DNA from: Escherichia phage JEP8
Sequence record: MT764208.1
Direction: 5' to 3' (one strand)
DNA: 64,000 bases
Positions 12,277-50,937 of this stretch are shown here, one piece after another (position 1 is the first letter of the stretch; each line of letters starts with the position of its first letter). Below the pieces are notes generated by a model, which was not told the origin of the DNA, ran no database searches, and was given only the letters and a program-made list of their open reading frames with translations. Both the position numbers and the translations under genes were made by a program.

Positions 12277-13746
12277 CTATTCCCCATTACCATTATACTT
12301 TCTTTGCTTAGTTATCCACACTCTAACCATCTCTACTGATTCACCGTCAGACGGATCAAGAGTTTTTCCTTTTTTCTTCATGCGATACTTAAATCCGTTA
12401 AATCTTGCATTCTCTTGCTCGTTAAAGTCGAACATCTTTTTAAATGATTTTCTCCCTTTACGCTCACCACATTCTAGCGGAATCATTCGGTCTGTTATTA
12501 CATTGGCATTAGGTAGAAACGTTTTTAGATAATCCACCAACGCCCAATCAGGAACATATAGATTAACATTCTCCTTGCTCTCGTTGTCTCTCAGGTTACA
12601 ACGCAAACATAATTGAAATGCTGGTTCCAGATAATCAGACACATGACGCGCTTTCAAAAACTCGTTTGTCGGGAGATCACAACTATTAGCAAGACCTTTT
12701 AAAATATCAATCTCCCATCGTTGAGGGTTAAAGCTGAACATCACAGCAACATTTTTATGATGAATGTAAGAGTTAAGACCATAAGATCCGTAAGGTATCC
12801 GCTCACCAATACCATTTGTGCACGCTTCACGGTCCCGATTCACGGTATAAATGAAGTCATCGCCACATTCATTTTTAACCATATCAACAAGACGTTCAAA
12901 GGTATTGTTTGTTTCTGACTGGTGACGCGACCAGCGTTCGGAGTCAGTCATAAGGATGATGTTAACTCTATCTGTATTTTTATACTCTTTGAAATATAGT
13001 CTGGATTCTAGCGCACTCGGAACAAAATCGCAATTTGCATAGTATCGTAGATACTTCCCACTATATGTATCAAAGAGATTTGCACATGCTATCGTAACCT
13101 TTTTAAAGTCTCCCCACGTACCGTGTTTGTTATCGTTCAAGAAAACAATTTTCGACCCATTCTTCCGGTGTCCTTCGTTATGTTTTACCATAACGTTGAT
13201 TTTCTTCTCTAATAACGCCTCATAAAGCCCTCTAAGAGAAGAATCGATCATATCAGTACCATCCTTTGCACTTTCTATCTTTTCTTTGATAGCGGCCTTC
13301 TCAGAGTCTTTTAGAACTAAGTTCTGTAGGCATTCCGATTCGTCGGCGATTGGTTCGCAATGCTTCGTGATAAGTTCAAGATTAGACTTAAACGGATACT
13401 CATTAAATTCAACCAGTTGAGGAACTTCATCAATGTAAAGAGCATATTCACCAAACATTTTTGAACGTTCCATATTAGATAACGCTGTATGTGTAATGAA
13501 TATCACATCAGCACCGTCTTTAACTGATTGCATTATCGACGCTTGCACTGTCTTAAGGCTTCTTAGTCTTGTGCTATCGATCAAGACAGCACGACCGCCC
13601 ATTCTTTTAAACTTATTGTAAGATTGTTCACTTAAAACACGAGATGGCGAAGCAATAACCGCTTTTTCTTTTGTCTCTAGGACGTGGGAAAGTATAGCAT
13701 CAGTTTTCCCCGCCGCTGGCAATGCGATTAATGTTTCAATCTTCAT
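12277..13746 (-). CDS. Uncharacterised P-loop NTPase-domain protein (489 aa)
   Basis: N-terminal Walker A-like LPAAGKTD and Walker B-like LYIDEVPQ; no resemblance to T4 alpha-glucosyltransferase despite lying in the 47-55-nrdH interval. Confidence 0.6.
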   Translation of the reverse strand: MKIETLIALPAAGKTDAILSHVLETKEKAVIASPSRVLSEQSYNKFKRMGGRAVLIDSTRLRSLKTVQASIMQSVKDGADVIFITHTALSNMERSKMFGEYALYIDEVPQLVEFNEYPFKSNLELITKHCEPIADESECLQNLVLKDSEKAAIKEKIESAKDGTDMIDSSLRGLYEALLEKKINVMVKHNEGHRKNGSKIVFLNDNKHGTWGDFKKVTIACANLFDTYSGKYLRYYANCDFVPSALESRLYFKEYKNTDRVNIILMTDSERWSRHQSETNNTFERLVDMVKNECGDDFIYTVNRDREACTNGIGERIPYGSYGLNSYIHHKNVAVMFSFNPQRWEIDILKGLANSCDLPTNEFLKARHVSDYLEPAFQLCLRCNLRDNESKENVNLYVPDWALVDYLKTFLPNANVITDRMIPLECGERKGRKSFKKMFDFNEQENARFNGFKYRMKKKGKTLDPSDGESVEMVRVWITKQRKYNGNGE

Positions 13747-14051: not shown

Positions 14052-14202
14052 GAATTACTTAATGATACTTACTTTACCAGATCCATGACAATGAGCGCAA
14101 CACCCATCACCACGTAATCCTGTTCCGTTACAGTGTTTACACTTCTTCAACGGTAAAGTCATTATAGCAAATAAAGCAATAATGAACACCGAAACTAAAT
14201 TC

Positions 14203-14472
14203 TCAATAATCATAAATCGCCCTCAGTTCTTTATAGCCTCCAATGTGCTCGTTGTCAATGAATATCTGGGGGTATACAAACCGGAGGCTCTTTGAGTTCA
14301 GCCTCCCCGCCAGTTCTTCAATCATATCACGGTCGGGAATAATGTCAACCCCGACCTGCTTGAATACTGGTTTAAGTGTATACGGAATACCCAGATCATC
14401 CAGTAGCTTCATTGCACTAATACAACCATAACAATGATAAGCCTCTTTAGGTATACCGTATATCTCGATCAT
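14203..14472 (-). CDS. Glutaredoxin-like protein (NrdH-like)
   Basis: CxxC motif (CYGC) near the N-terminus, ~89 aa, ...GGY C-terminal region; adjacent to the anaerobic RNR genes. Confidence 0.65.
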   Translation of the reverse strand: MIEIYGIPKEAYHCYGCISAMKLLDDLGIPYTLKPVFKQVGVDIIPDRDMIEELAGRLNSKSLRFVYPQIFIDNEHIGGYKELRAIYDY

Positions 14473-14945
14473 TTCTCAGCCTTTAATCTTTCTAGTTCTT
14501 CTTCCAGTTCCTTGATCCGTTGGTCACGTTCAAAGTCACGCTGTAACTTAGTGGCGAATACTCGTTTAAACTGATTGTAATCATCGATTTTAAACACTTC
14601 TTCTTCGCCATAGCGACGCACAGAAACTTCGTAGTTATTGAAGAATTGTTGCATCATTGCTTCGGATGATAGTTCTGCTGATACTACTTTAAAATATTGA
14701 TCTTCGGTAGGTGAAAACCAATTACAAGCATAAAGATAAACCTTTTCATTGTCTGGACACTGATAAGCCTTACCATCGATTTCAATCACAGAAACATATT
14801 CAGGTATACTGGATGAATCAATAGCTAAGACTTTAAACGCACGGTCCCCGATAAACTCGGAGATCACACGATTCGCATCACTGGTTGCAAATGCTTTACG
14901 CGCTTGTTCGTTTTTCCACTGATAGGTCATACCAACAACAAACAT
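14469..14945 (-). CDS. Hypothetical protein, WEVGKTY-domain paralog family
   Basis: VGMTYQWKNEQARKAF...IEIDGKAY...; C-terminal charged coiled coil (KELEEELERLKAEK). Confidence 0.6.
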   Translation of the reverse strand: MFVVGMTYQWKNEQARKAFATSDANRVISEFIGDRAFKVLAIDSSSIPEYVSVIEIDGKAYQCPDNEKVYLYACNWFSPTEDQYFKVVSAELSSEAMMQQFFNNYEVSVRRYGEEEVFKIDDYNQFKRVFATKLQRDFERDQRIKELEEELERLKAEK

Positions 14946-14946
14946 A

Positions 14947-15771
14947 TTACCAACCTCGCTCTTTACCGATCAAAAATTCAACTTCACGACGTTTAATATC
15001 TTCTTGAAGGTCTTTAATCTTCTGGCGATCTTGCATGATTTCGTCCATCTTGTCAAGTGCTGTAATGAAATCATCGAAACGTTCAAAGGTTTTACCTTCA
15101 TTTGCTTCGCCAAATTTAACCATTGTCAGGCCGTAACGACTACTAAACAGACGTTTCAACTGTCCAACGATCTTAGAATCAGTAGTGACGACTTCCAATT
15201 CTTCTACTTCTTGAAAGAATTTTCTATCAGAATCAATAAACCAGCTAATTCCTTTATGGTCTTTATCTTCGGTTGCACTCATTAGAGTATGGTCTTTACC
15301 ATCAATTTCAATTACATCAATTTGCCCACATGGACTAACCTTTTTAACAGTAAAAGGTCTATAATTTATTGCTCGTGCAATAACATAATTAAGGTTTGAT
15401 ACGTTTTCAGCATAATGGCAGAAGTCGGTCATAGCATTCGCATCTTTCCAAGTATAAGTTTTACCAACTTCCCATTTCTGGGGAACTTCTTCGACTTCAC
15501 GAAAGAATTTTCTATCGAATGGACTAAAGAAATATGTTGCAGTCCAAATGTCTTTTCCTGTAGCAGTTTTCGCCGTATGATAAACACCGTCTAGCTCTAT
15601 TGCATCAATCCAACCGTTACCCTCGATCTCGATGATGGTAAATGGCTTGTCACCAATAGCTGCACTAATATCGCTGTTAAGTGGAGAAAGAACACCTTCT
15701 CCGTTAGTAATAAACTCAGTTTTAGCGTTTTCGTCTTTCCAAGTGTAAGTTTTACCAATTTCCCATTTCAT
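14947..15771 (-). CDS. Hypothetical protein with two tandem WEVGKTY domains
   Basis: Two internal copies: WEIGKTYTWKDENAKTEF...IELDG...DRKFFREVEE and WEVGKTYTWKDANAMTDF...IEIDGK...DRKFFQEVEE. Confidence 0.65.
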   Translation of the reverse strand: MKWEIGKTYTWKDENAKTEFITNGEGVLSPLNSDISAAIGDKPFTIIEIEGNGWIDAIELDGVYHTAKTATGKDIWTATYFFSPFDRKFFREVEEVPQKWEVGKTYTWKDANAMTDFCHYAENVSNLNYVIARAINYRPFTVKKVSPCGQIDVIEIDGKDHTLMSATEDKDHKGISWFIDSDRKFFQEVEELEVVTTDSKIVGQLKRLFSSRYGLTMVKFGEANEGKTFERFDDFITALDKMDEIMQDRQKIKDLQEDIKRREVEFLIGKERGW

Positions 15772-15783
15772 AATATATTCCCC

Positions 15784-16284
15784 TTAACCGATTTTATCAA
15801 GTTCGTTTAATGCTTTCTCTGCTTCCTGTATAGCTTGCACTCTTTCCGGCATTTTGTCAAGAAAATCTTTCAACTCTTCAAAACTGGAGATATGACGCAA
15901 GGCATTAGCACCGATAGCCGCATGTGATTTGCATTCAAAGCGGATTTTATAATTATCCATAGCCAATTTGAGAAGATCAATTAGATCATGTTCATGACCA
16001 GGCAATAAAACTTCTTTGAAGCACGCTCGGTCGTCATCGGAAAACCATATATTATCACCAACATCGATAGAACTAATATAATCCCCTTCGTGATTATAGA
16101 TTGAACGTACATTACCCCAACGGTCTACCGTAGCGACAGTAAATGGTTTATCTAGATATGTAAACACACCATCAATATTAGGTTTTTGTTCGTAACGCCA
16201 ACAATCACGCAAAATACGCTTTTCGTCCTCACCAACCAACTTATATGTCTTCCCTTCTTCCCATTTCATAATATCATCTCTCAT
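15784..16284 (-). CDS. Hypothetical protein, WEVGKTY-domain paralog family
   Basis: WEEGKTYKLVGEDEK...; C-terminal helical region resembles that of 16274..16810. Confidence 0.6.
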   Translation of the reverse strand: MRDDIMKWEEGKTYKLVGEDEKRILRDCWRYEQKPNIDGVFTYLDKPFTVATVDRWGNVRSIYNHEGDYISSIDVGDNIWFSDDDRACFKEVLLPGHEHDLIDLLKLAMDNYKIRFECKSHAAIGANALRHISSFEELKDFLDKMPERVQAIQEAEKALNELDKIG

Positions 16285-16810
16285 TTTTGATACGTGATTC
16301 TAATTGGATCATACGGTCGCGCGTTTGCTTATATTCGCGGATAGCACCGATTCGGCTAGGCATACCATCCAGTACGCTCTTAATACCTTCTAGGGTAGTG
16401 ATTTTAGCAATGCTATTATGCAATCCTGTCTTATCGATCAACTGAATGTCGTAGGCTTCCATAAGCAGACCCAGACGTTCTAAAGTTAGGTCTTCTTCTT
16501 TTTCTTCCGATTCTGGAATCTTAGGTTCAATAGTAACTTCGGTAAAGAAACGACGCTCACCAGCCCAAAACCACACACCGGAACAGCCAATAGGGGATTC
16601 TTTTAACGTCATAGAGTCGAAATCACTACCAATAATAGTAATTTCTCTAACATCACCATCATCGTCAATGTCTTCTACCATAAACGGGCGACCAGCCAAC
16701 AAGTCCACAATACATCTGTTAATAGACGACGAAAATTTAGTCAGTTCGGCTTTCGACGCTTCGCATTCAATCTTGTAAGTTTTACCAACTTCCCATTCCA
16801 TAATAATCAC
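16274..16810 (-). CDS. Hypothetical protein, WEVGKTY-domain paralog family
   Basis: WEVGKTYKIECEASKAEL...RRFFTEV... Confidence 0.6.
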   Translation of the reverse strand: MIIMEWEVGKTYKIECEASKAELTKFSSSINRCIVDLLAGRPFMVEDIDDDGDVREITIIGSDFDSMTLKESPIGCSGVWFWAGERRFFTEVTIEPKIPESEEKEEDLTLERLGLLMEAYDIQLIDKTGLHNSIAKITTLEGIKSVLDGMPSRIGAIREYKQTRDRMIQLESRIKNER

Positions 16811-16811
16811 C

Positions 16812-17315
16812 TCAAATAATTTTCACTGGAATACTATTAACAATCTTGTATTGTACTTGATTGTCAGACCCCCGCCACGGCTTCTTCGTTGGCATATCTT
16901 TAATATAACGCCCATCGATGAACATGTCAACTGATTCTACAATTTTTCTTTGCTCATCATTCAATTGGTCAAGGGTATAACCGGACCATAGCCAAATATC
17001 TTTATTTGGCATCCATGATTTTACTTCATCGATGATCCGCTGTACACCCTTTAAATTGCGTTTATACAGTGGATCGCCACCTAAGAATGTTAGCCCCTGA
17101 ATAAAATCAGGACTAAGCAGATCCAGAATCAATCCCATTGTATCATCGGTGAATGGTTCCCCGTTCTTAGGATTGAGTATACTGGAATTAAAACAACCAT
17201 CACATGCGTGTGAACATCCGGTAACGTAAAGGGAGACTCTCACTCCCTCACCGTTAACCATATCACAATCTTTAATATCGGCATAGCGTAGTTTGCCGTA
17301 TGTATCAGAACTCAT
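16812..17315 (-). CDS. nrdG: Anaerobic ribonucleotide reductase activating protein NrdG (radical SAM)
   Basis: Radical-SAM cysteine triad CSHACDGC; ~167 aa. The ORF-track start is TTG, so the ATG at 17315 (MSSDTYGKL...) is used. Confidence 0.85.
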   Translation of the reverse strand: MSSDTYGKLRYADIKDCDMVNGEGVRVSLYVTGCSHACDGCFNSSILNPKNGEPFTDDTMGLILDLLSPDFIQGLTFLGGDPLYKRNLKGVQRIIDEVKSWMPNKDIWLWSGYTLDQLNDEQRKIVESVDMFIDGRYIKDMPTKKPWRGSDNQVQYKIVNSIPVKII

Positions 17316-17499
17316 ATTCAATTACCCCGAACTCGTTTACAATCTGCGCTTTATAGTAACCACCGCGAGATGCCAATAGATAAGCTGGTCTTAGGTATTC
17401 GTATTCACGGATTTCTACTTGTGCGTTTTCAGTTTCCCAAATCAGTAAAGTCCACATATTTGATTCTCCTGTAAAGTTGTATCTCGTCTTGATGAATAT

Positions 17500-17528
17500 A
17501 GTATAGGGGATCTCGCGATCCCCGTCAA
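17500..17528 (-). promoter_or_regulatory. sigma70-type early promoter cassette
   Basis: Minus strand TTGACG-N17-TATACT followed by the conserved ...AGGAGAAUCAAAU leader. Confidence 0.5.
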
Positions 17529-17532
17529 GAAT

Positions 17533-18060
17533 TTATTTTAAATTTTTTCGAATGTATTCAGACCATTCCTTCCCTGTCATTTCGGACCCGTTCTGGAAAC
17601 TGAAATATTCATAAGGCATCGAGTCAAGATAAAACAGGATCATACATCGCGCCATATAATACCAATCACGATTAAAGTAAACTACGTTATCACCAGTGCC
17701 ATCAACCCCTTTATCATAACCATCGCGGGTACGGGCTACCCATTGAATAGTATCAGTTTTCTCACGGATAGTAACAGGTTCCCAATATCCAGCACATCCA
17801 GCATGACCACACGAACAAGTAAGGAAGTATTGGCCTTTTGCTTTGTTGTCATCCCATTCACGATGGATTGGTTCGACCTCGTGAAACAGTACCAAACAAT
17901 CATGATTATGCAACACTGGCTTACCATCAATCAATGCATGGAATGTATACAAACGACCAGTAGACAAATAGCTATCCTCACGCTCAACCAGTTCAATAGC
18001 AATCTTTTTAGCTCGTTCTTTGTGTCGTTGTGCTTTACGCTTACGGTTTAATGATTTCAT
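17533..18060 (-). CDS. Hypothetical Cys-rich protein
   Basis: Contains CSCGHAGCAGYWE; start set to the ATG with GAGGTG RBS (MKSLNRKRK...). Confidence 0.55.
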   Translation of the reverse strand: MKSLNRKRKAQRHKERAKKIAIELVEREDSYLSTGRLYTFHALIDGKPVLHNHDCLVLFHEVEPIHREWDDNKAKGQYFLTCSCGHAGCAGYWEPVTIREKTDTIQWVARTRDGYDKGVDGTGDNVVYFNRDWYYMARCMILFYLDSMPYEYFSFQNGSEMTGKEWSEYIRKNLK

Positions 18061-18077
18061 ATTCACCTCACACATTA

Positions 18078-18620
18078 TCAAAGGTCGCGATATAGTACAT
18101 TATGAAAATGAGAACTTGCATTACCAATATTGTAGATAATAAATTCTTCATCCGGCGCTTGCGCTACAAATTGAGTATGAGCAACCGCCACAACCTTAAA
18201 AATACGATCCGTGATCTTGTGTTTAATTTCTGCCCCTACTTCCATAGGAACATATTCATTTGTTTCTGTTTCAGTCGCAAAACAGCCATCTTCTTCATAA
18301 GCACGAACAAATCGGTCGCAATCAGTACGCTTAACAAATTCAAGAGTATATAATTCTCGTGAATTGTCGGTATAGACCAATACAGAATTATTATGATAGC
18401 GAATCACATACAGGTTATTATCATCGTCAATTACGCAAAAGCTACGGATTCCTTCGCCTTGACTCCAGCAGATATTAACCACCGTTCCTCTAATAAAAAA
18501 ACTTTCCTTTAAATTAAAACTAGTCAATGTGCTAGCGTGCATTTTAACAACAACACCATCGCCAATTTCCAGTTTACGAAGTTTAACTTCTTTGCTCAGT
18601 ACACAAAACATCATCATCAT
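18078..18620 (-). CDS. Hypothetical protein
   Basis: 180-aa ORF with an upstream promoter cassette. Confidence 0.55.
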   Translation of the reverse strand: MMMMFCVLSKEVKLRKLEIGDGVVVKMHASTLTSFNLKESFFIRGTVVNICWSQGEGIRSFCVIDDDNNLYVIRYHNNSVLVYTDNSRELYTLEFVKRTDCDRFVRAYEEDGCFATETETNEYVPMEVGAEIKHKITDRIFKVVAVAHTQFVAQAPDEEFIIYNIGNASSHFHNVLYRDL

Positions 18621-18649
18621 GTTGTCCTCTCGTTGTTTTCGATGTGAGC

Positions 18650-18677
18650 ATTATACATTAGCTAATCAAGTTGTCAA
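18650..18677 (-). promoter_or_regulatory. sigma70-type early promoter (TTGACA-N16-TATAAT)
   Basis: Minus strand TTGACA (18677..18672) and TATAAT (18655..18650), then GCUCACAUCGAAAAC leader, RBS and ATG at 18620. Confidence 0.65.
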
Positions 18678-18683
18678 CACCCC

Positions 18684-18714
18684 AAAACGAAAAAGCCGAC
18701 CCTTTCGGATCGGC
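18684..18714 (-). terminator. Rho-independent terminator downstream of nrdD
   Basis: Minus strand AGCCGAUCC-GAAA-GGGUCGGCU hairpin followed by UUUUUCGUUUU. Confidence 0.65.
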
Positions 18715-18720
18715 TGAAAA

Positions 18721-20583
18721 TTACATGTGCTTAACGCGGTTTACCATCTCGGAGTGTTTCCCGTGGTTAAATGGACGCAGATCAACAGATCCAAGATATC
18801 CACTAACGCGACGGATAACATTCATCTTTTCCAGATTGTCATTGCCGCAATCAGGGCAAACAAAACCAGACTCGGTCGCTCTCATTTCCTTATTAGATCC
18901 ACATACATGACATACATCAGAAGGAGTATTAACACCGAAGTAGTGCAATTTATCCATTGCATAGTCTACTACAGTTTCAAGACCTTTCAGGTTGTTTTTC
19001 ATGTCTGGGAACTCAACATAAGAGATCATGCCACCGGACGCCAGCCAGTGATAATCTTTCTCAAAGTCGATTTTCTCAAATGGTGTGACTTTCCGGTCTA
19101 CGTCAAGGTGGAATGAGTTGGTGTACCAGTCTTTATCGGTAGCACCCTTAACAATACCAAATTGCTCTCTGTCCAGTCGATTAAATCGATAGCAAAGGCT
19201 CTCGGCTGGCGTACCGTAAAGACTAAACCCAAGTCCGGTTTCATCCTTCCATTTTTCAGTATAATGACGCAAGATCTTAAGAATATGTTTACCGTATCGC
19301 TGCGCATCTTCCGAATCAAACGGATGAACACCAAACAGGACGCTCAATACCTCATGTAAACCAATATATCCAAGAGAGATACTAGCGCGACCATCTTTCA
19401 ACACTTCCAAAATTTCATCGTTTTGATGAATACGGAAAAATGCACCTTCTGTATACAGCACCGGAGCAACATTGGCTTTAGCGCCTTTTAAAGCGTCTAC
19501 GCGACTCATGAGCGCATCAAAGCAAATAGGCATACGATTGGCTAGCTCTTGTTCGAATAGCTCAATTCTGCGCATTACAGACGCTTTACCAGCACGACGC
19601 GCGGCAATAAGGGCAATACGCGGAAGATTCAGAGTCACAACACCTAAGTTATTACGTCCGTCTAATACTTCTTCTCCTTTCTCATTATGCCACACACCCA
19701 GGAAGCTACGACAACCCATCGGGCTAACCGGAACACTAGATCCGGTGATACTACGGTTATTCTTCGCAGAGATATAATCAGGGTAAAGACGCTTACTAGA
19801 ACATTCCAATGCAAGTTGCTTAATGTCGTAGTTCGGATCTTCCGGTTTAAGGTTTAATCCTTCTTCTAAGAACATCACCAGCTTAGGAAACACCGGAGTG
19901 ATACCATCTTTACCTAAACCTTTAGTTCGAACGTTCAGGATCGCTTTCTGAATCAGTTTTTCTTCCCAGCTAGTACCCATACCAAAGGTTAAAGTCACAA
20001 AAGGCGTTTGACCGTTGGTGGAGAACAAAGTGTTGATTTCATATTCCAACGCTTGATACCCGTCTAAAGTTTCTTTTTCTGTCTTCTCTTGTGCATAGAG
20101 AGTATCAGCTTTGATTCCGTAGGTTTCGGCATCAGCAAGGTGTTTATGATATGTTTTCTCAACATACGGTGCTAACACCTGATCGATGTTTGCGATTGTG
20201 GTCCCTCCATATTGATGACTTGCCACCTGTGCGATAATTTGAGCGGTCACAGCACATGCAACACCGATCGATTTAGGACTTTCGATTTGTGCGCTACCCA
20301 ATTTAAAACCATTCTCTAACATGTCTTTGAGATTAACAAGACAGCAGTTAGTAAACGGCATAGCGGGTGCATAATCCATATCATGATAATGAATATCACC
20401 GTCTACATGCGCTTTATAGATGTGCTCAGGTAACACGGTTTTAGCAATCTGTTTAGACACAGCACCAGCAATCAGATCTCGACGTGTCGGGAATGTTCGC
20501 GCGTCTTTGTTCGCGTTCTCTTTACTTACTTCGTTTTCTTTACCCGTTGCGATCTCTGTAATGTCTTTGATTAGTTTTTCCAT
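18721..20583 (-). CDS. nrdD: Anaerobic ribonucleoside-triphosphate reductase NrdD (glycyl radical enzyme)
   Basis: 620 aa; C-terminal glycyl-radical motif RVSGYLG and C-terminal Zn-ribbon cysteines (CHVCG...CPDCG); uninterrupted. Confidence 0.9.
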   Translation of the reverse strand: MEKLIKDITEIATGKENEVSKENANKDARTFPTRRDLIAGAVSKQIAKTVLPEHIYKAHVDGDIHYHDMDYAPAMPFTNCCLVNLKDMLENGFKLGSAQIESPKSIGVACAVTAQIIAQVASHQYGGTTIANIDQVLAPYVEKTYHKHLADAETYGIKADTLYAQEKTEKETLDGYQALEYEINTLFSTNGQTPFVTLTFGMGTSWEEKLIQKAILNVRTKGLGKDGITPVFPKLVMFLEEGLNLKPEDPNYDIKQLALECSSKRLYPDYISAKNNRSITGSSVPVSPMGCRSFLGVWHNEKGEEVLDGRNNLGVVTLNLPRIALIAARRAGKASVMRRIELFEQELANRMPICFDALMSRVDALKGAKANVAPVLYTEGAFFRIHQNDEILEVLKDGRASISLGYIGLHEVLSVLFGVHPFDSEDAQRYGKHILKILRHYTEKWKDETGLGFSLYGTPAESLCYRFNRLDREQFGIVKGATDKDWYTNSFHLDVDRKVTPFEKIDFEKDYHWLASGGMISYVEFPDMKNNLKGLETVVDYAMDKLHYFGVNTPSDVCHVCGSNKEMRATESGFVCPDCGNDNLEKMNVIRRVSGYLGSVDLRPFNHGKHSEMVNRVKHM

Positions 20584-20629
20584 TGTATCACCTATGAAAA
20601 AGCGGGATTTTCTCCCGCTCGTTGATAGT

Positions 20630-21124
20630 TTATTTTACCAGTTCTGCTAATTCTTTTTCTTTAGCTTCCAGTTCAGCTTTAAGCTGTTTAATCTCTTGTC
20701 GCTTCTTATTAGCGGCTTCCTGCTTACTATTGCGGATAATCTGATCTAGATACAACTCCCAATCCTGAATATTTTTGATAATATAACCGTCAACATTAAT
20801 TGGTCGGATATTTAGTACAGCTTCCAGTTTAGTCGCAAAAACTTTAATTGCTGGTGTGAAGTATTCATATTCGTTATCTTCAAACCAATAACCTAGACTT
20901 GCATTCTCAATACGAAGACGAAGTTCAAGATCAAGGTCTTTATCTTCGGTGTAAAGATCTTGCACATGCCCCATCGAACTAACAACAACTTTAAAACGAA
21001 TTTTATCAACACCACCAAACACATCAGTAAGGATACCAGCAATTGAGCTATTAGCGCAAGATTGGTCGCTGAATGCGTCAAGGTTTTCTTTAGTTACAGT
21101 ATACCAAACATCTTGTACCCACAT
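20630..21124 (-). CDS. Hypothetical protein, related to the WEVGKTY-family C-terminal region
   Basis: KVFATKLEAV resembles KRVFATKLQRDF of 14469..14945; C-terminal coiled coil. ATG preceded by the GAGGATTATATT leader. Confidence 0.55.
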   Translation of the reverse strand: MWVQDVWYTVTKENLDAFSDQSCANSSIAGILTDVFGGVDKIRFKVVVSSMGHVQDLYTEDKDLDLELRLRIENASLGYWFEDNEYEYFTPAIKVFATKLEAVLNIRPINVDGYIIKNIQDWELYLDQIIRNSKQEAANKKRQEIKQLKAELEAKEKELAELVK

Positions 21125-21153
21125 AATATAATCCTCTCGTTGTTAAGTGGGAG

Positions 21154-21181
21154 TATTATAGCATACTCCCTTCGCATGTCA
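21154..21181 (-). promoter_or_regulatory. sigma70-type early promoter (TTGACA-N16-TATAAT)
   Basis: Minus strand TTGACA (21181..21176), TATAAT (21159..21154), then GAGGATTATATT-ATG leader. Confidence 0.6.
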
Positions 21182-22357
21182 AGCACTAACTTTTTTCTTT
21201 ACTGCTTTCACCTTCTGGCGAATTGCTCGAATCTCTTCGATCTCTTTTTCAGTCTCTTTAACAATTTCTTTGCGATTCTGAATATCTGTATCGAGATTAT
21301 CATCAAGTTTAGGCAGCATGTCAATCAAGAACTTTTTAAAGTCTTTCAGGTTTCGGATAACAGCACCTTCACCCATTACCGCCACCCCTACACCATCCGG
21401 CAGATCACCAAACAGCTTAACCAGTTCAGACAGATGATCATGATCTTCTAGTGCTTCTTCCGGTTCAGATGGCAGTTCAACAAAGTTATAACGTTCATCA
21501 TTGCTGATCAAGTGATACCAGCAAAGCCCAAAAGATTTAGGAGTATATTCTACACCATCAACTTCAACCGCGTCAACACTTCCGAAAGAATCTACTTTAG
21601 TTGCCTTAAATCCGTGTTCCAGCTTTTGAACAATTTCAATAACATGACTGGATACGGTTTCCGTATTAAACCAATGAGGCAAATTATGTGGATTTGGCTT
21701 GTAGCGTTCGCCTACTTTAAATCTCTGACCACGCTCTTGCATACGGACATATTCAACTCGCGTGATTTCCGCGAAGTATTCAAATTCGCCACCGTCAAAC
21801 ACACAAGCCCATTGATCACAAAAACGATCTGCCTTAACAGTTTCACCTTTCGCGGTGATCATGGTAGCTGATCCGTGCAATTCTTCTTCAACTAAAAAGC
21901 CATATTCGACAAAATCAACAAGTTTCATAGCTTCTTTGTGATCTGGATCATGCTCTCCCCAGAATCGCTTAAATTCTTGCAAACCTTCTGGGGTAAACGA
22001 ATAACATTTACCTTTTTCAAAGTAAGTCGGCATTGCATCCTCTTTCTTGTTCATCGCTTCGTATGCCTCTTTTGAGATGCGTTTAAAGTATTTACGCTCA
22101 TTGTGCATAATCATAGTAGCCCAATAATCAACAATATCATTAGCGGAATAAACTACATCTCCAGCTTCAATAGTAATAACATGACCGTGGTCATCTTTTT
22201 CTAATACTTTAAAGCCCTTTTCTACGATTTCAGCAACCCGAATATGACCACGGCGCGAAGCATCGGTCAGAATAATTGAATAGCGAGAAAAGTCTAGAAA
22301 CTCATCTTTACCACCTTCACGGAATGCATAGTAATGACCTTCAAAGAATTTAGCCAT
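21179..22357 (-). CDS. Hypothetical protein (392 aa) with repeated domains of the paralog family
   Basis: Shares ERKYFKRISK..., GFKVLEKDD... and a C-terminal ...NLKDFKKFLIDM helical region with 22414..22980. Confidence 0.6.
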   Translation of the reverse strand: MAKFFEGHYYAFREGGKDEFLDFSRYSIILTDASRRGHIRVAEIVEKGFKVLEKDDHGHVITIEAGDVVYSANDIVDYWATMIMHNERKYFKRISKEAYEAMNKKEDAMPTYFEKGKCYSFTPEGLQEFKRFWGEHDPDHKEAMKLVDFVEYGFLVEEELHGSATMITAKGETVKADRFCDQWACVFDGGEFEYFAEITRVEYVRMQERGQRFKVGERYKPNPHNLPHWFNTETVSSHVIEIVQKLEHGFKATKVDSFGSVDAVEVDGVEYTPKSFGLCWYHLISNDERYNFVELPSEPEEALEDHDHLSELVKLFGDLPDGVGVAVMGEGAVIRNLKDFKKFLIDMLPKLDDNLDTDIQNRKEIVKETEKEIEEIRAIRQKVKAVKKKVSA

Positions 22358-22413
22358 AATATAATCCTCTCGTTGTTTAGATGTGAGTATCTTACTACTC
22401 CCGTTTCATCATG

Positions 22414-22980
22414 TCAAGCGTTAAATGACTTTTGGATCTCTTTCAGTTCAGCTACTTTATCGGCGCTGAATTTAGCGTAGGTATCATGTCGAATAATTTC
22501 ACTTTCAAGAAAGGTTTCCAGCCGAGATCTATTTTCAATAAGGAACTCTTTCAGGTCTTCCGCGTTCTTGATAAAGATTTTATTGTCAGTAATGTCATCT
22601 TCAATCGCAAAGGAGATAGAGCGAACTTTACCAAACAAGTTAATCAGATCTTCCAGAGATTCTTCTTTCTTAACTGGTTTCATTTCTTCAAACTGCTTTT
22701 TAGTGATGCGTTTAAAGTATTTGCGCTCGCTTGCATCAATCATGATTGACGCACCCTCATAATCATGAGTTTCTACCAAATACACTTTACCCATAACATT
22801 AACCGTAAGAACTTTAAAGCCCCTGTGAAGCACACCATACAGGAACTTGTTATGTTGTGGATAGCGTTTAACAAATTCCTCTGCGGACTCAGCATTACGG
22901 AAAGTGTAATAACGACCTCGTTCAAAAACAGCATCATTTGAAGACTTAGCTGGATACAATTTATACGTTTTCTGTACCAT
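22414..22980 (-). CDS. Hypothetical protein, paralog of 21179..22357
   Basis: ASERKYFKRITKKQFEEM, GFKVLTVNVMGKV, ...NAEDLKEFLIEN. Start set to the ATG with GAGGA RBS (MVQKTYKLY...). Confidence 0.6.
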   Translation of the reverse strand: MVQKTYKLYPAKSSNDAVFERGRYYTFRNAESAEEFVKRYPQHNKFLYGVLHRGFKVLTVNVMGKVYLVETHDYEGASIMIDASERKYFKRITKKQFEEMKPVKKEESLEDLINLFGKVRSISFAIEDDITDNKIFIKNAEDLKEFLIENRSRLETFLESEIIRHDTYAKFSADKVAELKEIQKSFNA

Positions 22981-22994
22981 AATATAATCCTCTA

Positions 22995-23267
22995 TCATTT
23001 CACTAATTGAACAGCACGGAACAGAATGCGCTCACACGGAAGCAGCATAAATTCCCAACGCGGATCAAAGTCTTTAGCGGTGTATGTTTTCCCATCAACC
23101 GAGATTTCACTTACATAACCAACAGGTGACACTTTAAGAACAGTAAATCCATTCTTGATGACTTCGTAGGTATCTTTCACTCCTTCGTATTCATCATCTA
23201 AGAAGTCTTTACGTGCTTGCTCAGATTTAAAAACATAGGCAACACCGGATTTAAACATCTTACGCAT
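22995..23267 (-). CDS. Hypothetical protein, WEVGKTY-family single-domain member
   Basis: VAYVFKSEQARKDF...GFTVLKV...ISVDGKTY; start set to the ATG with AAGGAGAA RBS. Confidence 0.55.
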   Translation of the reverse strand: MRKMFKSGVAYVFKSEQARKDFLDDEYEGVKDTYEVIKNGFTVLKVSPVGYVSEISVDGKTYTAKDFDPRWEFMLLPCERILFRAVQLVK

Positions 23268-23330
23268 TGTTGATTCTCCTTCTTGATTAGATGGGAGCAT
23301 TTTACTACTCCCATTTCTTATTGTCAACTA

Positions 23331-47206: not shown

Positions 47207-48028
47207 TTATGCATCCTTCCAAACTTTCCTTGCGTCGTATTTCTTGCCTTTTGACATAAACTGATATGTAGGCATATAGATAATATTGCTCCAGTCTTTC
47301 GGGCTAATCTCAACAAGTTTTGTTTTAATGTGTCCCGGTAGATATGCTTTGATCATATGGTCACTACCACGCATACCTTTTACATCGCTCCATTTGATTT
47401 TTAAGCGTGTTTTATTGCTCAAGGTAGGAGTAGATGCATATTGCTTTAAAAGTGCCTCTAAAAACTGCTGACGGGCTTTAGGAGTTACATAGTGTAAGTT
47501 AAGACCCAACATTACAGTATTACCCGCCTTTGTCTTAGAATCACCCAGACAAATGATCAGCGGGAAAACATCCCAATATGGCAAAGTGTCTTTATACTTC
47601 GCATCATACATAAAGGTATAGATTCGCCCTACTTGCGGTTTTACAATCTGGTGTCCCTTTATTCCCGCTTTTATTGTTTTAGTAAACCACTCCTGTGATT
47701 TTTCTTTAGGGCGACTCTTTGATACAGCACGCATAGACGCACGAAAATCATTAATCATCATCATTGCGCGTTGCTGCTTATTGAGACCCTTTGCGCCTTT
47801 CCCTTTTAGTTTTTCAACTTCTATTGCTGTTTTAATTTCGCTGGCATAACGAGACATACTTTTAGTGAAAGTCGCATAGGCTATTCCCTTAGAATCTGCA
47901 AATGCTTTAGCTGTCATGCCTTTGGCTTTTGCTTTCGCAAATTCTACACCCAATTCGACCCACTGTTTAGACTTTCGTTTTTGGGGAGACGGCTTTTCGT
48001 CTTCGGTGATTATTTCAAATACGCTCAT
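47207..48028 (-). CDS. 2: DNA end-protector protein gp2
   Basis: 273 aa (T4 gp2 is ~274 aa); basic N-terminal region; position between 4 and 3; GAGGATAATATT-ATG leader. Confidence 0.7.
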   Translation of the reverse strand: MSVFEIITEDEKPSPQKRKSKQWVELGVEFAKAKAKGMTAKAFADSKGIAYATFTKSMSRYASEIKTAIEVEKLKGKGAKGLNKQQRAMMMINDFRASMRAVSKSRPKEKSQEWFTKTIKAGIKGHQIVKPQVGRIYTFMYDAKYKDTLPYWDVFPLIICLGDSKTKAGNTVMLGLNLHYVTPKARQQFLEALLKQYASTPTLSNKTRLKIKWSDVKGMRGSDHMIKAYLPGHIKTKLVEISPKDWSNIIYMPTYQFMSKGKKYDARKVWKDA

Positions 48029-48039
48029 AATATTATCCT

Positions 48040-48516
48040 CTATTTGTTAAGCCCTTTAAAGCCAAACACTTTCTTTAATGCATGTTCGGTTATGATCTTA
48101 AACTCCATGTTATGCTTTTGGCACAAATCAACCGCAGCTTTCCACTTTTCCGTGTTTACAGTATATGTGTAACACTCTTGCATGTATCTTTGCTTAGTCT
48201 TAGTGGTTATTCTTTTTGGCCTTTCCGGTGGCCGTGTCTCTTTTGCCGGTTTAACTTCCCACAAGAACTCTTTACCATCTACAAATTTCACCCAAAAATC
48301 CATATGATACTTTCTGGATCGTTTATCTGCGCTAGACCAGTAAGGTATAATCACACACTCAGAGTTCCATTTAGACACGCTAGGACTACGGTCCAAAAAT
48401 TTCATTATGTGCAATTCCCAGCTTGATCTATAAGTGATTTTATGCAAGTTGTTTCCTTTGTACTTCTCAGGATTTTCTGGCTTGAACTTGCCCTTATAAG
48501 TGTTAGATCCTCCCAT
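48040..48516 (-). CDS. 4: Head completion protein gp4
   Basis: 158 aa; position between 53 and 2 on the opposite strand to 53. Confidence 0.7.
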   Translation of the reverse strand: MGGSNTYKGKFKPENPEKYKGNNLHKITYRSSWELHIMKFLDRSPSVSKWNSECVIIPYWSSADKRSRKYHMDFWVKFVDGKEFLWEVKPAKETRPPERPKRITTKTKQRYMQECYTYTVNTEKWKAAVDLCQKHNMEFKIITEHALKKVFGFKGLNK

Positions 48517-48531
48517 TTTAGCACCCTTTAT

Positions 48532-48539
48532 TATAAATA
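48532..48539 (+). promoter_or_regulatory. T4-type late promoter core TATAAATA upstream of gene 53
   Basis: Exact TATAAATA 33 nt upstream of the gene 53 ATG. Confidence 0.6.
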
Positions 48540-48571
48540 CATAATACTATTTATCAATTGAGGGTGCTAAA

Positions 48572-49126
48572 ATGCTCTTTTCTTTCTTCCCTGCCATTGA
48601 ATACAACGGCAAGATGATTACTGACATTGTGCGCAATTACCGCGCATATTTCAACGCAATAATTTCTGATTATAACATACAAACATATTACATTCAAGGT
48701 AGTCCACGACCGGAACAAGTTGCATATGAAGTATACGGAAACCAACAACTTTATTGGATCTTGCTGATGCTTAATGACGTATACGATCCGTTCCATGACT
48801 GGATCACCGATCAAGAGACAGCATATGAATCAGCCGAACAACGATATGCAAACGTAGGAGGAAATCAAGTATTATACCACGTTGATATTGACGGAAACAA
48901 GTATTGGAATCTTACCGAATATCCGAAAGGATCAAGCAATTGGTATGATAAAGGGGATATTCATCATCGTCATTTGCAGTTTCAAGGTGCATTATCGGCG
49001 GTAGACACACTGGAAGATGCGATCCTCCGCAATGAGGAACGACGCAAGATCAAGATCATAGATCCTACACAAATTAAACAATTTATTAACGCATTCATTC
49101 GAGAAATGGAAAAGGCTGATGTGTAA
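48572..49126 (+). CDS. 53: Baseplate wedge protein gp53
   Basis: ...QTYYIQGSPRPEQVAYEVYGNQQLYWILLMLNDVYDP...WYDKGD...GALSAVDT... matches T4 gp53. Confidence 0.9.
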   Translation: MLFSFFPAIEYNGKMITDIVRNYRAYFNAIISDYNIQTYYIQGSPRPEQVAYEVYGNQQLYWILLMLNDVYDPFHDWITDQETAYESAEQRYANVGGNQVLYHVDIDGNKYWNLTEYPKGSSNWYDKGDIHHRHLQFQGALSAVDTLEDAILRNEERRKIKIIDPTQIKQFINAFIREMEKADV

Positions 49127-49137
49127 GGTGATTAATT

Positions 49138-50937
49138 ATGCTAATGTTTAATAACTCCGTTAAATGGTTTACCGGAATTGTAGAAAACAGGGAAGACCCA
49201 TTAATGCTGGGGCGTGTTCAGGTTAGGATTCATGGTATACATCCCTCGCTATCCGCGCACGGTGACATTCAAGGTCTTCCAACCGAAGATCTATTATGGA
49301 TTACGCCAGTACAAGATATTACAAGCGCGGCGATCTCCGGTATAGGTCAAAGCCCTACTGGTATTGTTGAAGGTTCAATGGTATTTGGTTTGGCTTTAGA
49401 TGAACGTTATTTAAACTGCGTTATTCTTGGTACTATTGCCGGACAATATACAGAGAAACCACTCACTACAGAAGGTTTTTGCGACCCTTCTGGTGCATAT
49501 CCTCGTTATATTGGTAATGATGTTAATATTCTTGCTCGTGGCGGTATTAACCCAGAAACCGGGCAAACAACAAAACCTGATAGTGTCTATATTCGAGATG
49601 AAAACACTGGAGTTGCAGTAAATCCAGACGACGAGCCATTAGACCAAATTCCGGTTGATGATAATCCTGATTTTACAATAGAAAAAATGCTGCGGGGCGA
49701 TGAGGGATATCGCGAGAAATGGTATCTTGATTCAGAAGGATATCCGACAATAGGCATCGGGCATTTGATCATTTATAAGAAAACCAGTGATCTTGATATT
49801 ATCAATAATGAACTTTCTAAGCTGGTAGGGCGTGAAGTTACAAACGGAAGACTTACCGCCGAAGAAGTTAGTAAAGTATTTGCCGACGATATAGAAAAGA
49901 CTCGTCGTGATATGCGCAAACATCCACGAATTGCACCTGTCTATAATAAATGTAATGCCTCACGTCGTATGGCATTAGAAAATATGGCGTTTCAAATGGG
50001 TGTTGGTGGATTGGGTAAATTTAAGAATAGTCTTGCTGCGATGTTAGCGGAAGAATGGAAACAAGCCTATGATGGATTACGTCAATCGGTATGGGCTAAC
50101 CAAACTCCAGGACGATCCAGCCGTGTTTCTAAAATTATTCTTACTGGCAACTTAGAATCATATGGCGTAATTGCTCCAAAGAAAGAGGAATCAATTTCTG
50201 ATGATCCGCGAGCACGTTTGAGAAATGCCCGTATTGCTGCCTATAAGACGCAGAGAGCAGAAGAAGACCCAGAAGCACCGTTTACCCCACAAGACACACG
50301 AATCATGTTTAAAGAGCCTAAGAGTTCGTATTCTGCAAGGTATCCTTATAACCATGTGTACGAGTCAGAGAGCGGTCATATTATCGAGATTGATGATACT
50401 CCTTCTCATGAGCGATATCATCGTAAACATCCTTCGGGTACATTTGAAGAAACCAGACCGGACGGAACGAGGGTAGAAAAGATTGAAGGCGATGATTATC
50501 TGATCGTTAAACAAGGCCGGAAAGTAAACGTTAAGGGTAATTTGCAAGTTGTTGTTGAAGGTGACGCGCAAGTTTATTATATGGGTAATGTGATGCAAAC
50601 CGTTGATGGTAACGTCACTGAATTTATTCGTGGTAATGTTAATCAGACCGTTGAAGGTACTGCTAACATGCATGTTGTAGGTGATGTTACCGCTCAGCTT
50701 GACGCTAATTTGACGGCTAACGTCAAGGGTAATGCTGAATTAATGATCGAGGGTAACACTACCGAAACAATTAAAGGTAACTATGATTTAACCGTTGAGG
50801 GTAATTTTAATATGACCGTCAATGGCACTAAATCAGATCAGGTTAATGGTGACTGGTCCCGTAATTGTGGTGCAAGCGTTAAAGATATTGCATCTGGTAC
50901 AGTTAAAATTGATGGTAGCCGTATTGATCTTGGGTGA
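49138..50937 (+). CDS. 5: Baseplate hub / tail lysozyme gp5
   Basis: N-terminal OB-fold region, central T4-lysozyme-like domain (EGYPTIGIGHL...NMAFQMG...WANQTP), C-terminal beta-helix repeats (VxGNxxxxVEG...). Confidence 0.9.
   Translation: MLMFNNSVKWFTGIVENREDPLMLGRVQVRIHGIHPSLSAHGDIQGLPTEDLLWITPVQDITSAAISGIGQSPTGIVEGSMVFGLALDERYLNCVILGTIAGQYTEKPLTTEGFCDPSGAYPRYIGNDVNILARGGINPETGQTTKPDSVYIRDENTGVAVNPDDEPLDQIPVDDNPDFTIEKMLRGDEGYREKWYLDSEGYPTIGIGHLIIYKKTSDLDIINNELSKLVGREVTNGRLTAEEVSKVFADDIEKTRRDMRKHPRIAPVYNKCNASRRMALENMAFQMGVGGLGKFKNSLAAMLAEEWKQAYDGLRQSVWANQTPGRSSRVSKIILTGNLESYGVIAPKKEESISDDPRARLRNARIAAYKTQRAEEDPEAPFTPQDTRIMFKEPKSSYSARYPYNHVYESESGHIIEIDDTPSHERYHRKHPSGTFEETRPDGTRVEKIEGDDYLIVKQGRKVNVKGNLQVVVEGDAQVYYMGNVMQTVDGNVTEFIRGNVNQTVEGTANMHVVGDVTAQLDANLTANVKGNAELMIEGNTTETIKGNYDLTVEGNFNMTVNGTKSDQVNGDWSRNCGASVKDIASGTVKIDGSRIDLG

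Follow-up and report, generated by a model that had tools for sequence, protein, structure and literature searches.

Eight open reading frames (ORFs) on the minus strand of the Escherichia phage JEP8 sequence (record MT764208.1), lying around the anaerobic ribonucleotide reductase genes nrdD and nrdG, form an expanded Krischvirus branch of the phage T4 GoF (ComC-alpha)/Frd.2/MotB.1 family, in which MotB.1 is a remote member. These ORFs, here lettered A to H, occupy positions 14469-23267 of the 64,000-nucleotide stretch that was analysed (the window) and together encode 11 copies of an N-terminal barrel domain. Comparison of related genomes identifies the combination of variable barrel and constant C-terminal tail as the product of sub-genic exchange, i.e. 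exchange at the level of the single domain. The region concerned is 97-98% identical to RB49-like coliphages of the genus Krischvirus (FL38 97.9%, RB49 97.3%; 58 matching records).

Paralogy and family membership

A first-pass annotation of the window had described at least eight minus-strand genes with a common domain of about 70-90 amino acids, in about 11 copies, as a locally expanded and diverging multigene family of a phage early region. All eight ORFs are present, and 11 domain copies were counted. Genes A to D lie head to tail behind nrdG. Gene A (14469-14945, 158 amino acids) encodes one barrel (residues 1-95, 14661-14945) followed by a helical C-terminal module; gene B (14947-15771, 274 amino acids) carries tandem barrels B1 (15481-15771) and B2 (15184-15480) ahead of its module; genes C (15784-16269, 161 amino acids) and D (16274-16801, 175 amino acids) each combine one barrel with a module. 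For the last two the annotated starts, 16284 in C and 16810 in D (the latter also the mechanical ORF start), were replaced by the likelier 16269 and 16801, 16284 being kept as an alternative for C. Gene E (20630-21124, 164 amino acids) joins the most divergent barrel to a charged C-terminal helix, and gene F (21179-22357, 392 amino acids) has three tandem barrels (22058-22357, 21743-22033 and 21458-21733) and a C-terminal module. Gene G (22414-22980, 188 amino acids), which has a start with the GAGGATTATATT leader, one basic barrel (net charge +4) and a module, begins 14 bases after gene H (22995-23267, 90 amino acids), a barrel alone, of the same length as that annotated for RB49p060. Here the annotated starts (22980 for G, 23267 for H) were preferred to the mechanical ones, in the case of H because the TTG with which the mechanical ORF begins (23327) belongs to a promoter, as its -35 box.

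Profile searches of the 613 six-frame ORF segments of the window establish that the eight genes are paralogous. A first profile of six obvious N-terminal domain copies recovered F (E = 6.8e-16), G (9.6e-7) and E (5.2e-4), the next ORF scoring only 0.025. In leave-one-protein-out tests, with all copies from the tested protein dropped from the profile before the search, each of the 11 barrels ranked first: their E values lay between 1e-16 and 1.2e-4, the best of 605 background ORFs scoring 0.007-0.24. The paralogy is therefore real. By barrel, the values were 3.7e-13 for A, 1.3e-14 and 1e-16 for B, 3.4e-13 for C, 1.2e-4 for E, 3.4e-11, 1.5e-5 and 1.9e-9 for F, 6.2e-13 for G and 3.7e-16 for H, so that membership is weakest for the barrel of E and the middle one of F. 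Amino acid identity reaches 49% between B1 and B2, 37% between F1 and G and 32% between C and D, and is at most 31% in all other pairs; these most similar pairs are adjacent or intragenic, which indicates old tandem duplications. Core residues are kept in all paralogs in spite of identities that do not exceed 37% (49% for B1/B2), pointing to long-term purifying selection.

The low identity of most pairs (13-37%) and the weak membership of gene E and barrel F2 might suggest motifs shared by chance or composition, with no real family behind them. To this reading we attach virtually no probability: profile searches of the window and of the T4 and RB49 genomes refute it, the shared motifs being significant in every leave-one-out search. 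Moreover, independent PHROG models cross-match the members, T4 GoF is recovered at 1e-9, and AlphaFold2 (AF2) returns one fold unit repeatedly.

The family had not been recognised from T4 in the first-pass annotation, and here the profile searches lead to a different view. Searched against all six-frame T4 ORFs, a profile of the 11 window copies retrieved goF (1.1e-9) and frd.2 (1.1e-4), and a broader profile with distant representatives added retrieved GoF (4e-18), Frd.2 (5.8e-12) and MotB.1 (5.4e-5). Reciprocally, a profile of 87 T4-type GoF orthologs placed B (1.1e-7), A (2.4e-6), D (1.9e-4) and G (1.8e-3) at the top of the 613 window ORFs; H, F and C followed in rank without being significant alone and E was undetected by this GoF-only profile, these four being tied to GoF solely through the family profile. 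Window proteins match PHROGs, three of the models that cross-match the members are labelled 'goF mRNA metabolism modulator', and gene E matches phrog_3710 at 2e-4. The same name is borne in RefSeq by the RB49 orthologs of F and G, with that of F annotated 'frd.2 / goF mRNA metabolism modulator'. As the family is named and partly annotated in RefSeq, it is not a new kind of system; it is equally not a well-characterised domain of known function, since the named family has no assigned wild-type function.

Scans of the eight proteins against Pfam, NCBIfam and PADLOC gave nothing above chance (a single chance-level PADLOC match, E 0.0066), and a sequence-profile search of the PDB gave no significant match, the best hit (RepX, 0.0098) being judged spurious. 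Among 1.84 billion representative proteins only 69 matching clusters were found, approximately ten of them two-barrel, whilst relatives of gene F in the protein collection make up just 8 clusters, each at least 83% identical. The clusters of ten distant representatives contain metagenomic proteins throughout, and for the three-barrel metagenomic representative P0145 a tblastn search against phages found no match. As far as can be told, the family is small and phage-restricted.

Since the late 1970s the genetics of GoF (comC-alpha) have been puzzling, its mutants rescuing T4 on rho mutant hosts. The family has since been described as a phage 'LSm-like' fold family with an N-terminal beta-barrel, and T4 GoF as an early, abundant protein (~20,000 copies per cell) that is dispensable in the laboratory and occurs as monomer and dimer (Kim et al. 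2025, PMC12152347). GoF(D25Y) stabilises gene 41 mRNA post-transcriptionally (PMC12152347), and both D25Y and G84R suppress the growth defect of T4 on rho(nusD) hosts (PMC12152347, PMC2988021); functional data on the family concern mRNA stability and Rho only, and come from gain-of-function T4 mutants.

Profile similarity between GoF and the window copies is significant in both directions, and the two groups have in common the N-terminal five-stranded barrel of about 90 residues with FeoA and IdeR as structural neighbours, a barrel that an acidic linker joins to a short C-terminal part, a place (probable for the window genes) among the early genes of T4-like phages and, as far as can be told, a lack of homologs outside phages. 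They differ in that T4 has three dispersed single-barrel genes whereas the window has eight genes and 11 barrels clustered around nrdDG (with one further gene, Dc2, elsewhere in RB49), among them two- and three-barrel proteins. Furthermore, the window proteins have a longer tail of helix, hairpin and long helix, a module not detected in T4 GoF or Frd.2, and, unlike in T4, many of their barrels are natively basic at the GoF G84R site and aromatic near D25.

Predicted fold and C-terminal module

The AF2 model of D, computed from an alignment of paralogs and orthologs, has a predicted local distance difference test score (pLDDT) of ~90 over residues 1-90, where a strand is followed by two helices and three to four more strands; beyond these lies a lower-confidence tail of helix, hairpin and long helix. 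In the AF2 model of F, which has a predicted template modelling score (pTM) of 0.41, the barrel unit recurs three times, together with a hairpin and a helix of 55 residues. In both an acidic linker of low pLDDT (residues 94-103 of D, 299-310 of F) precedes the helical module, such that the arrangement of barrel, linker and variable C-terminal domain known from the GoF family recurs, H being barrel-only. The C-terminal part is predicted to be helical in seven of the eight proteins, as the first-pass annotation had it, and is absent in H. Tails are highly conserved between orthologs (mean 96% identity), and pairwise BLAST aligns C with D, A with B and F with G over their full length.

On these models the barrels are SH3-like ('LSm-like') domains, each with a two-helix insertion, present in one to three N-terminal copies per protein. 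The D model reproduces the fold of the GoF family with FeoA/DtxR-type neighbours, albeit at a modest score, and a Foldseek search against the PDB returned nothing significant; the closest folds are FeoA, Tudor and the MIB repeat, which are mostly protein-protein interaction modules. Searching BFVD gave 59 matches at E <=1e-3, all uncharacterised and mostly from T4-like phages of Escherichia, Aeromonas, Proteus, Morganella, Edwardsiella, Pectobacterium, Citrobacter, Cronobacter and Enterobacter, as well as from phages phAPEC8 and CBB.

With FeoA and the C-terminal SH3-like domain of the metal regulators DtxR, IdeR and SloR the barrels have no sequence similarity (Pfam FeoA, PF04023, was unmatched) and the Foldseek E values are not significant; the window barrels contain the two-helix insertion between strands 1 and 2, and a metal-binding histidine cluster is lacking, as noted for GoF (PMC12152347). 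Hfq and the Sm/LSm proteins are, like the window barrels, small bent five-stranded beta-sheets, and the published rationale ties GoF(D25Y) to RNA stability within the LSm comparison (PMC12152347). However, none of the eight proteins matched Pfam LSM or Hfq at E values up to 1, the window barrels are mostly acidic, and their helices follow strand 1 instead of preceding the sheet. The D model accordingly lacks the Sm arrangement, i.e. an N-terminal helix and then five bent strands with Sm or Hfq as nearest neighbours. Nor is ring formation predicted for the T4 proteins, for which AlphaFold3 gave no confident multimers (PMC12152347).

Barrel exchange, expansion and expression signals

Between the Krischvirus genomes compared, the neighbouring genes gp55, nrdH, nrdG, nrdD and gp49 are 98-100% identical whereas individual family genes fall to 65-78%, with synonymous divergence (dS) of 0.3-1.2, a value that indicates allele replacement rather than local acceleration. 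The divergent DNA blocks match the barrel-coding parts: across the five genomes sampled, identity is lower than 85% in 13 of 55 comparisons of barrels and in one of 35 comparisons of C-terminal modules. Thus the barrel of gene A is 57-67% identical in E26, Makalu, FL04 and L010 and its C-terminal module 90-97%; corresponding values are 41% and 100% for gene C in RB49, 45% and 96% for gene D in FL04, and 48% and 88% for gene E in Makalu. In gene B, the second barrel is replaced in FL04 and L010 by one of 37-39% identity, the first barrel and tail in FL04 being 100% and 97% identical. Overall, replaced barrels are 37-67% identical and the tails of the same proteins 88-100%.

Replacement barrels are closest to their positional counterparts (42-71%), not to other paralogs, and therefore represent distinct allelic barrel types; on this ground a derivation from further paralogs of their own genome, by intragenomic conversion, was ruled out. 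The E26 ortholog of gene B lacks exactly one 96-residue barrel, with the junction inside the shared DRKFF-EVEE motif, as results from unequal recombination between tandem barrels. The ratio of non-synonymous to synonymous divergence (omega) is 0.17-0.53 for divergent alleles and 0.03-0.14 for neighbouring genes, a pattern of relaxed or diversifying selection that overall does not exceed 1; in the comparison of gene B with E26, the apparent non-synonymous divergence (dN) of 2.1 is artefactual, being caused by the lost repeat. Two further observations concern the same region. At the F2/F3 junction (21600-21850, minus strand) a block of ~250 bp is 83-84% identical to RB49, E26, Makalu and FL04, the rest of F being 95-97% identical. 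Between nrdG and nrdD, the ORF o17533 (17533-18060, minus strand; phrog_8242; such window ORFs are named by their lowest coordinate) has a Makalu_001 allele of 50% identity between neighbours above 96%, so that replacement in this region is not confined to GoF-like genes.

RB49, E26, Makalu_001, FL04 and one IMG/VR contig all have the complete array in conserved order. Copy number in related phages, which the first-pass annotation had proposed as a check, supports a local expansion: a scan of the complete RB49 genome found nine genes with 12 barrels, eight of the genes around nrdDG together with Dc2, compared with three genes and three barrels in T4. Dc2 (NC_005066, 11993-12628; 211 amino acids; E = 1.5e-7) lies directly upstream of gene 41, the target of mRNA stabilisation by T4 GoF(D25Y), and reads 'RGFFDEV' at the site equivalent to GoF residues 83 and 84. 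At the T4 goF position RB49 lacks goF, cef, motB and motB.1, gene 39 being followed by a 39.2 homolog and dexA; there is no frd.2 beside frd, and neither motA nor asiA is annotated. In T4, goF lies by gene 39 and cef, frd.2 by frd and gene 32, and motB.1 by motB, whilst the slots equivalent to the nrd positions hold mobile endonucleases or nothing. The GoF-like genes of RB49 have, in effect, moved to the nrd region.

A search for related loci with protein B found two Krischvirus-type contigs only, and two-barrel relatives occur in Karamvirus-type phages, at the goF-cef locus. Multi-barrel proteins are thus not unique to Krischvirus, yet they are absent from the main-text discussion of Kim et al. 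(2025), which likewise makes no mention of Krischvirus or of arrays. Although the 210-sequence tree of that study may include some of these proteins, the expansion in Krischvirus, the proteins that join tandem barrels to a common tail, the barrel-specific exchange of alleles and the natural suppressor-like residues are apparently undescribed in the available literature.

Contrary to the proposal that most members have their own promoter, sigma70-type promoters were located before three of the eight genes only, all on the minus strand. That of E (21155-21182) is TTGACA-16-TATAAT, a 12/12 match to consensus, with a GGGAGTA/TACTCCC stem over the -10 box (-9.7 kcal/mol, z -2.4); that of F (22389-22417; 10/12) has an imperfect stem; and that of H (23299-23327; 11/12, stem z -2.4) serves G as well. 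The GGGAGTA...TACTCC stem-loop over the -10 box, with stems of -5 to -10 kcal/mol, is common to all three; it occurs three times in 64 kb against 0.03 expected, each time before a family gene. In these features, together with a strong Shine-Dalgarno sequence and ATG, the E, F and H promoters correspond to the promoter-early stem-loop (PeSL) cassettes known from the hyperplastic regions of RB49 and phi1 (Arbiol et al. 2010, PMC2839356), whereas A, B, C, D and G have no such cassette. Recombination produces gene-content differences between close relatives in the published case as it does here, but there whole ORFs are inserted, deleted or replaced between PeSLs (PMC2839356), while in the window a single barrel is the unit exchanged, one breakpoint lying within the gene, where barrel and C-terminal module meet.

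An intrinsic terminator (20597-20620, minus strand; 8-bp GC-rich stem and T run, -13.8 kcal/mol, z -4.1) closes the series H-G-F-E before nrdD, where one is also annotated in Makalu_001. Upstream of o17305 and nrdG lies a promoter-like site of another, PeSL-like subtype (17500-17528, minus strand; 10/12), whose hexamers enclose the palindrome GGGGATCGCGAGATCCCC. From it nrdG, D, C, B, A and nrdH are probably transcribed together; no similarly good site is present directly upstream of D, C, B or A. A further PeSL-like promoter, likewise not of the GGGAGTA subtype (18650-18677, minus strand; 12/12), precedes o18078, just downstream of the nrdD terminator (18694-18715). The leader GAGGA(N)TATATTATG, put forward as a shared feature of the family, occurs 11 times in the window at up to one mismatch, seven times at unrelated genes, and is therefore a phage-wide translation-initiation consensus.

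Several neighbouring features were recorded alongside. The 50-residue o17305 (17305-17457, minus strand) overlaps the nrdG start and matches Pfam DUF7170 (E = 1.4e-17). An ORF at 14055-14213 (minus strand, 52 amino acids), 96-100% conserved across Krischvirus, encodes an N-terminal hydrophobic segment and then two copies of CxxCxGxG (CKHCNGTG, CAHCHGSG), the DnaJ-type zinc-finger motif; its product may be a membrane-anchored mini zinc-finger protein. The 489-residue product of 12277-13746 (minus strand), annotated 'hypothetical' as RB49p044, has a weak DEAD-box/P-loop match (PF00270, E = 3e-6) and matches phrog_2467, and at 99.6-100% identity across Krischvirus this protein type is unusually conserved for an unannotated early gene. 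GC skew turns from negative to positive near 49 kb (window ~48000-50000), where minus-strand early genes give way to plus-strand late (baseplate) genes.

Possible function and significance

We consider it about an even chance that the eight small, mostly acidic proteins are early modular binding proteins of the GoF branch, combining a variable barrel with a constant tail and acting, probably, on mRNA fate. In such a scheme the barrel would be the specificity module and would bind a macromolecule, either RNA or a protein component of RNA metabolism or transcription termination; the tail would be the constant part, serving self-association or docking, so that dimers could present two, four or six barrels. 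By the T4 GoF genetics the output would most likely be post-transcriptional: in a phage that, going by the RB49 annotation, is without MotA and AsiA, the proteins would adjust early and middle phage transcripts in their stability or read-through. The repertoire would have been diversified by ancient tandem duplication and by unequal recombination between tandem barrels, and whole barrel cassettes would be exchanged between co-circulating phages with the conserved tail and the upstream flank as recombination anchors. Residues at the T4 suppressor sites bear on this proposal. The alignment is firm around an invariant Phe near the barrel C-terminus, where the position of GoF residue 83 is Arg in 8/11 window barrels and that of residue 84, the site of G84R, is Lys or Arg in 5/11; these basic residues may be taken as a lead towards an effect on RNA or Rho, not as a test of one.

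A number of points weigh against this proposal. In the loop that holds GoF D25, an aromatic residue is found in 8/11 window barrels and in none of the three T4 proteins, but loop length varies, making the alignment unreliable there and the point only suggestive. Nine of the 11 barrels are acidic, with net charges of -3 to -9 (the exceptions are G, +4, and H, +1), which argues against generic, direct RNA binding. The arrangement of the barrels within F was predicted without confidence. Homology of the tails across the seven proteins is partly supported, leave-one-out searches being significant for C (4.9e-7), F (0.0085) and B (0.017) and for none of the rest; the coiled coil that the first-pass annotation had allowed for is backed by a heptad test in F (p=0.02) and marginally in D, and was set aside as a description of the tails throughout. 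Early expression is probable, the indication of timing being the promoter consensus alone. Finally, wild-type GoF and MotB.1 were almost without effect in an RNA reporter assay and their deletions had no phenotype (PMC12152347), and a wild-type function has been demonstrated for no family member.

Several of the same observations would also be expected under the leading alternative, raised in the first-pass annotation, that the barrels are anti-defence or host-takeover binders in an arms race, each type binding and neutralising a variable host protein (a defence sensor or effector, for example), not RNA, with their exchange tracking host strains. Barrel-specific alleles of 37-67% identity between genomes otherwise 98-100% identical, the omega of these alleles relative to neighbouring genes, the acidic barrels and the prevalence of protein-protein interaction modules amongst the closest folds all fit this account, as do the setting in a hyperplastic region with early promoters (PMC2839356) and the dispensability of the T4 homologs in laboratory strains (PMC12152347). 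On the other hand, PADLOC, Pfam and NCBIfam models were all unmatched, the literature searched contained no experimental link between family members and a defence system, overall omega stays under 1, and the sole known phenotype of the family concerns mRNA stability and Rho; the swap of the unrelated o17533 in Makalu, moreover, could mean that general regional plasticity explains the exchange. We therefore regard an arms-race role as possible but rather unlikely. Plasticity taken further would make the genes largely neutral passengers, with little selected function, shuffled by PeSL- or repeat-mediated recombination: their location fits the PeSL-rich plastic region of RB49 and phi1, in which nrdD is named as PeSL-associated (PMC2839356), all three GGGAGTA-type PeSLs stand before family genes, copy number shifts by unequal recombination and the T4 homologs are non-essential (PMC12152347). 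However, in each Krischvirus genome examined the eight genes are complete and in the same order, and their tails average 96% identity, conservation that makes neutral hitch-hiking unlikely; omega lies well below 1, diverged paralogs all retain the core residues, and the GoF protein of T4 reaches ~20,000 copies per cell (PMC12152347). Passenger status is consequently improbable.

Proximity to the reductase genes raises the further idea of accessory factors working with NrdD, NrdG and NrdH in the assembly, activation or regulation of the class III enzyme, given that family genes flank nrdD and nrdG and that A to D are apparently co-transcribed with nrdG and nrdH. Relatives elsewhere have no link to nrd: the T4 homologs goF, frd.2 as well as motB.1 are at other loci, the Karamvirus-type two-barrel relatives are at goF-cef, RB49 Dc2 precedes gene 41, and T4 has only mobile endonucleases or nothing at its nrd slots. 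A reductase role is accordingly very improbable.

A bolder reading would have the array as a recombination-diversified binding repertoire, in which a constant C-terminal scaffold presents interchangeable barrels from a pool shared across the phage population, with each barrel type tuned to a variable host target and the suppressor-like paralogs natively RNA-protecting or Rho-counteracting. The barrel types available to such a repertoire comprise at least 11 types per genome and at least six alternative types in the five genomes. We hold this reading to be doubtful, at a good deal less than an even chance; if it is true, the natively active paralogs would show at last what wild-type GoF proteins do. 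With its 11-12 naturally diverged barrels, some of which have residues of the T4 suppressor type, the array makes the GoF question experimentally approachable. The exchanges described here also indicate that in T4-type hyperplastic regions recombination can work on units smaller than a gene, namely single domains, and a variable barrel joined to a constant tail is what would be expected of a specificity module whose diversification is driven by the host. This is of relevance to the choice or engineering of RB49-like phages, a common component of therapeutic collections of E. coli phages.

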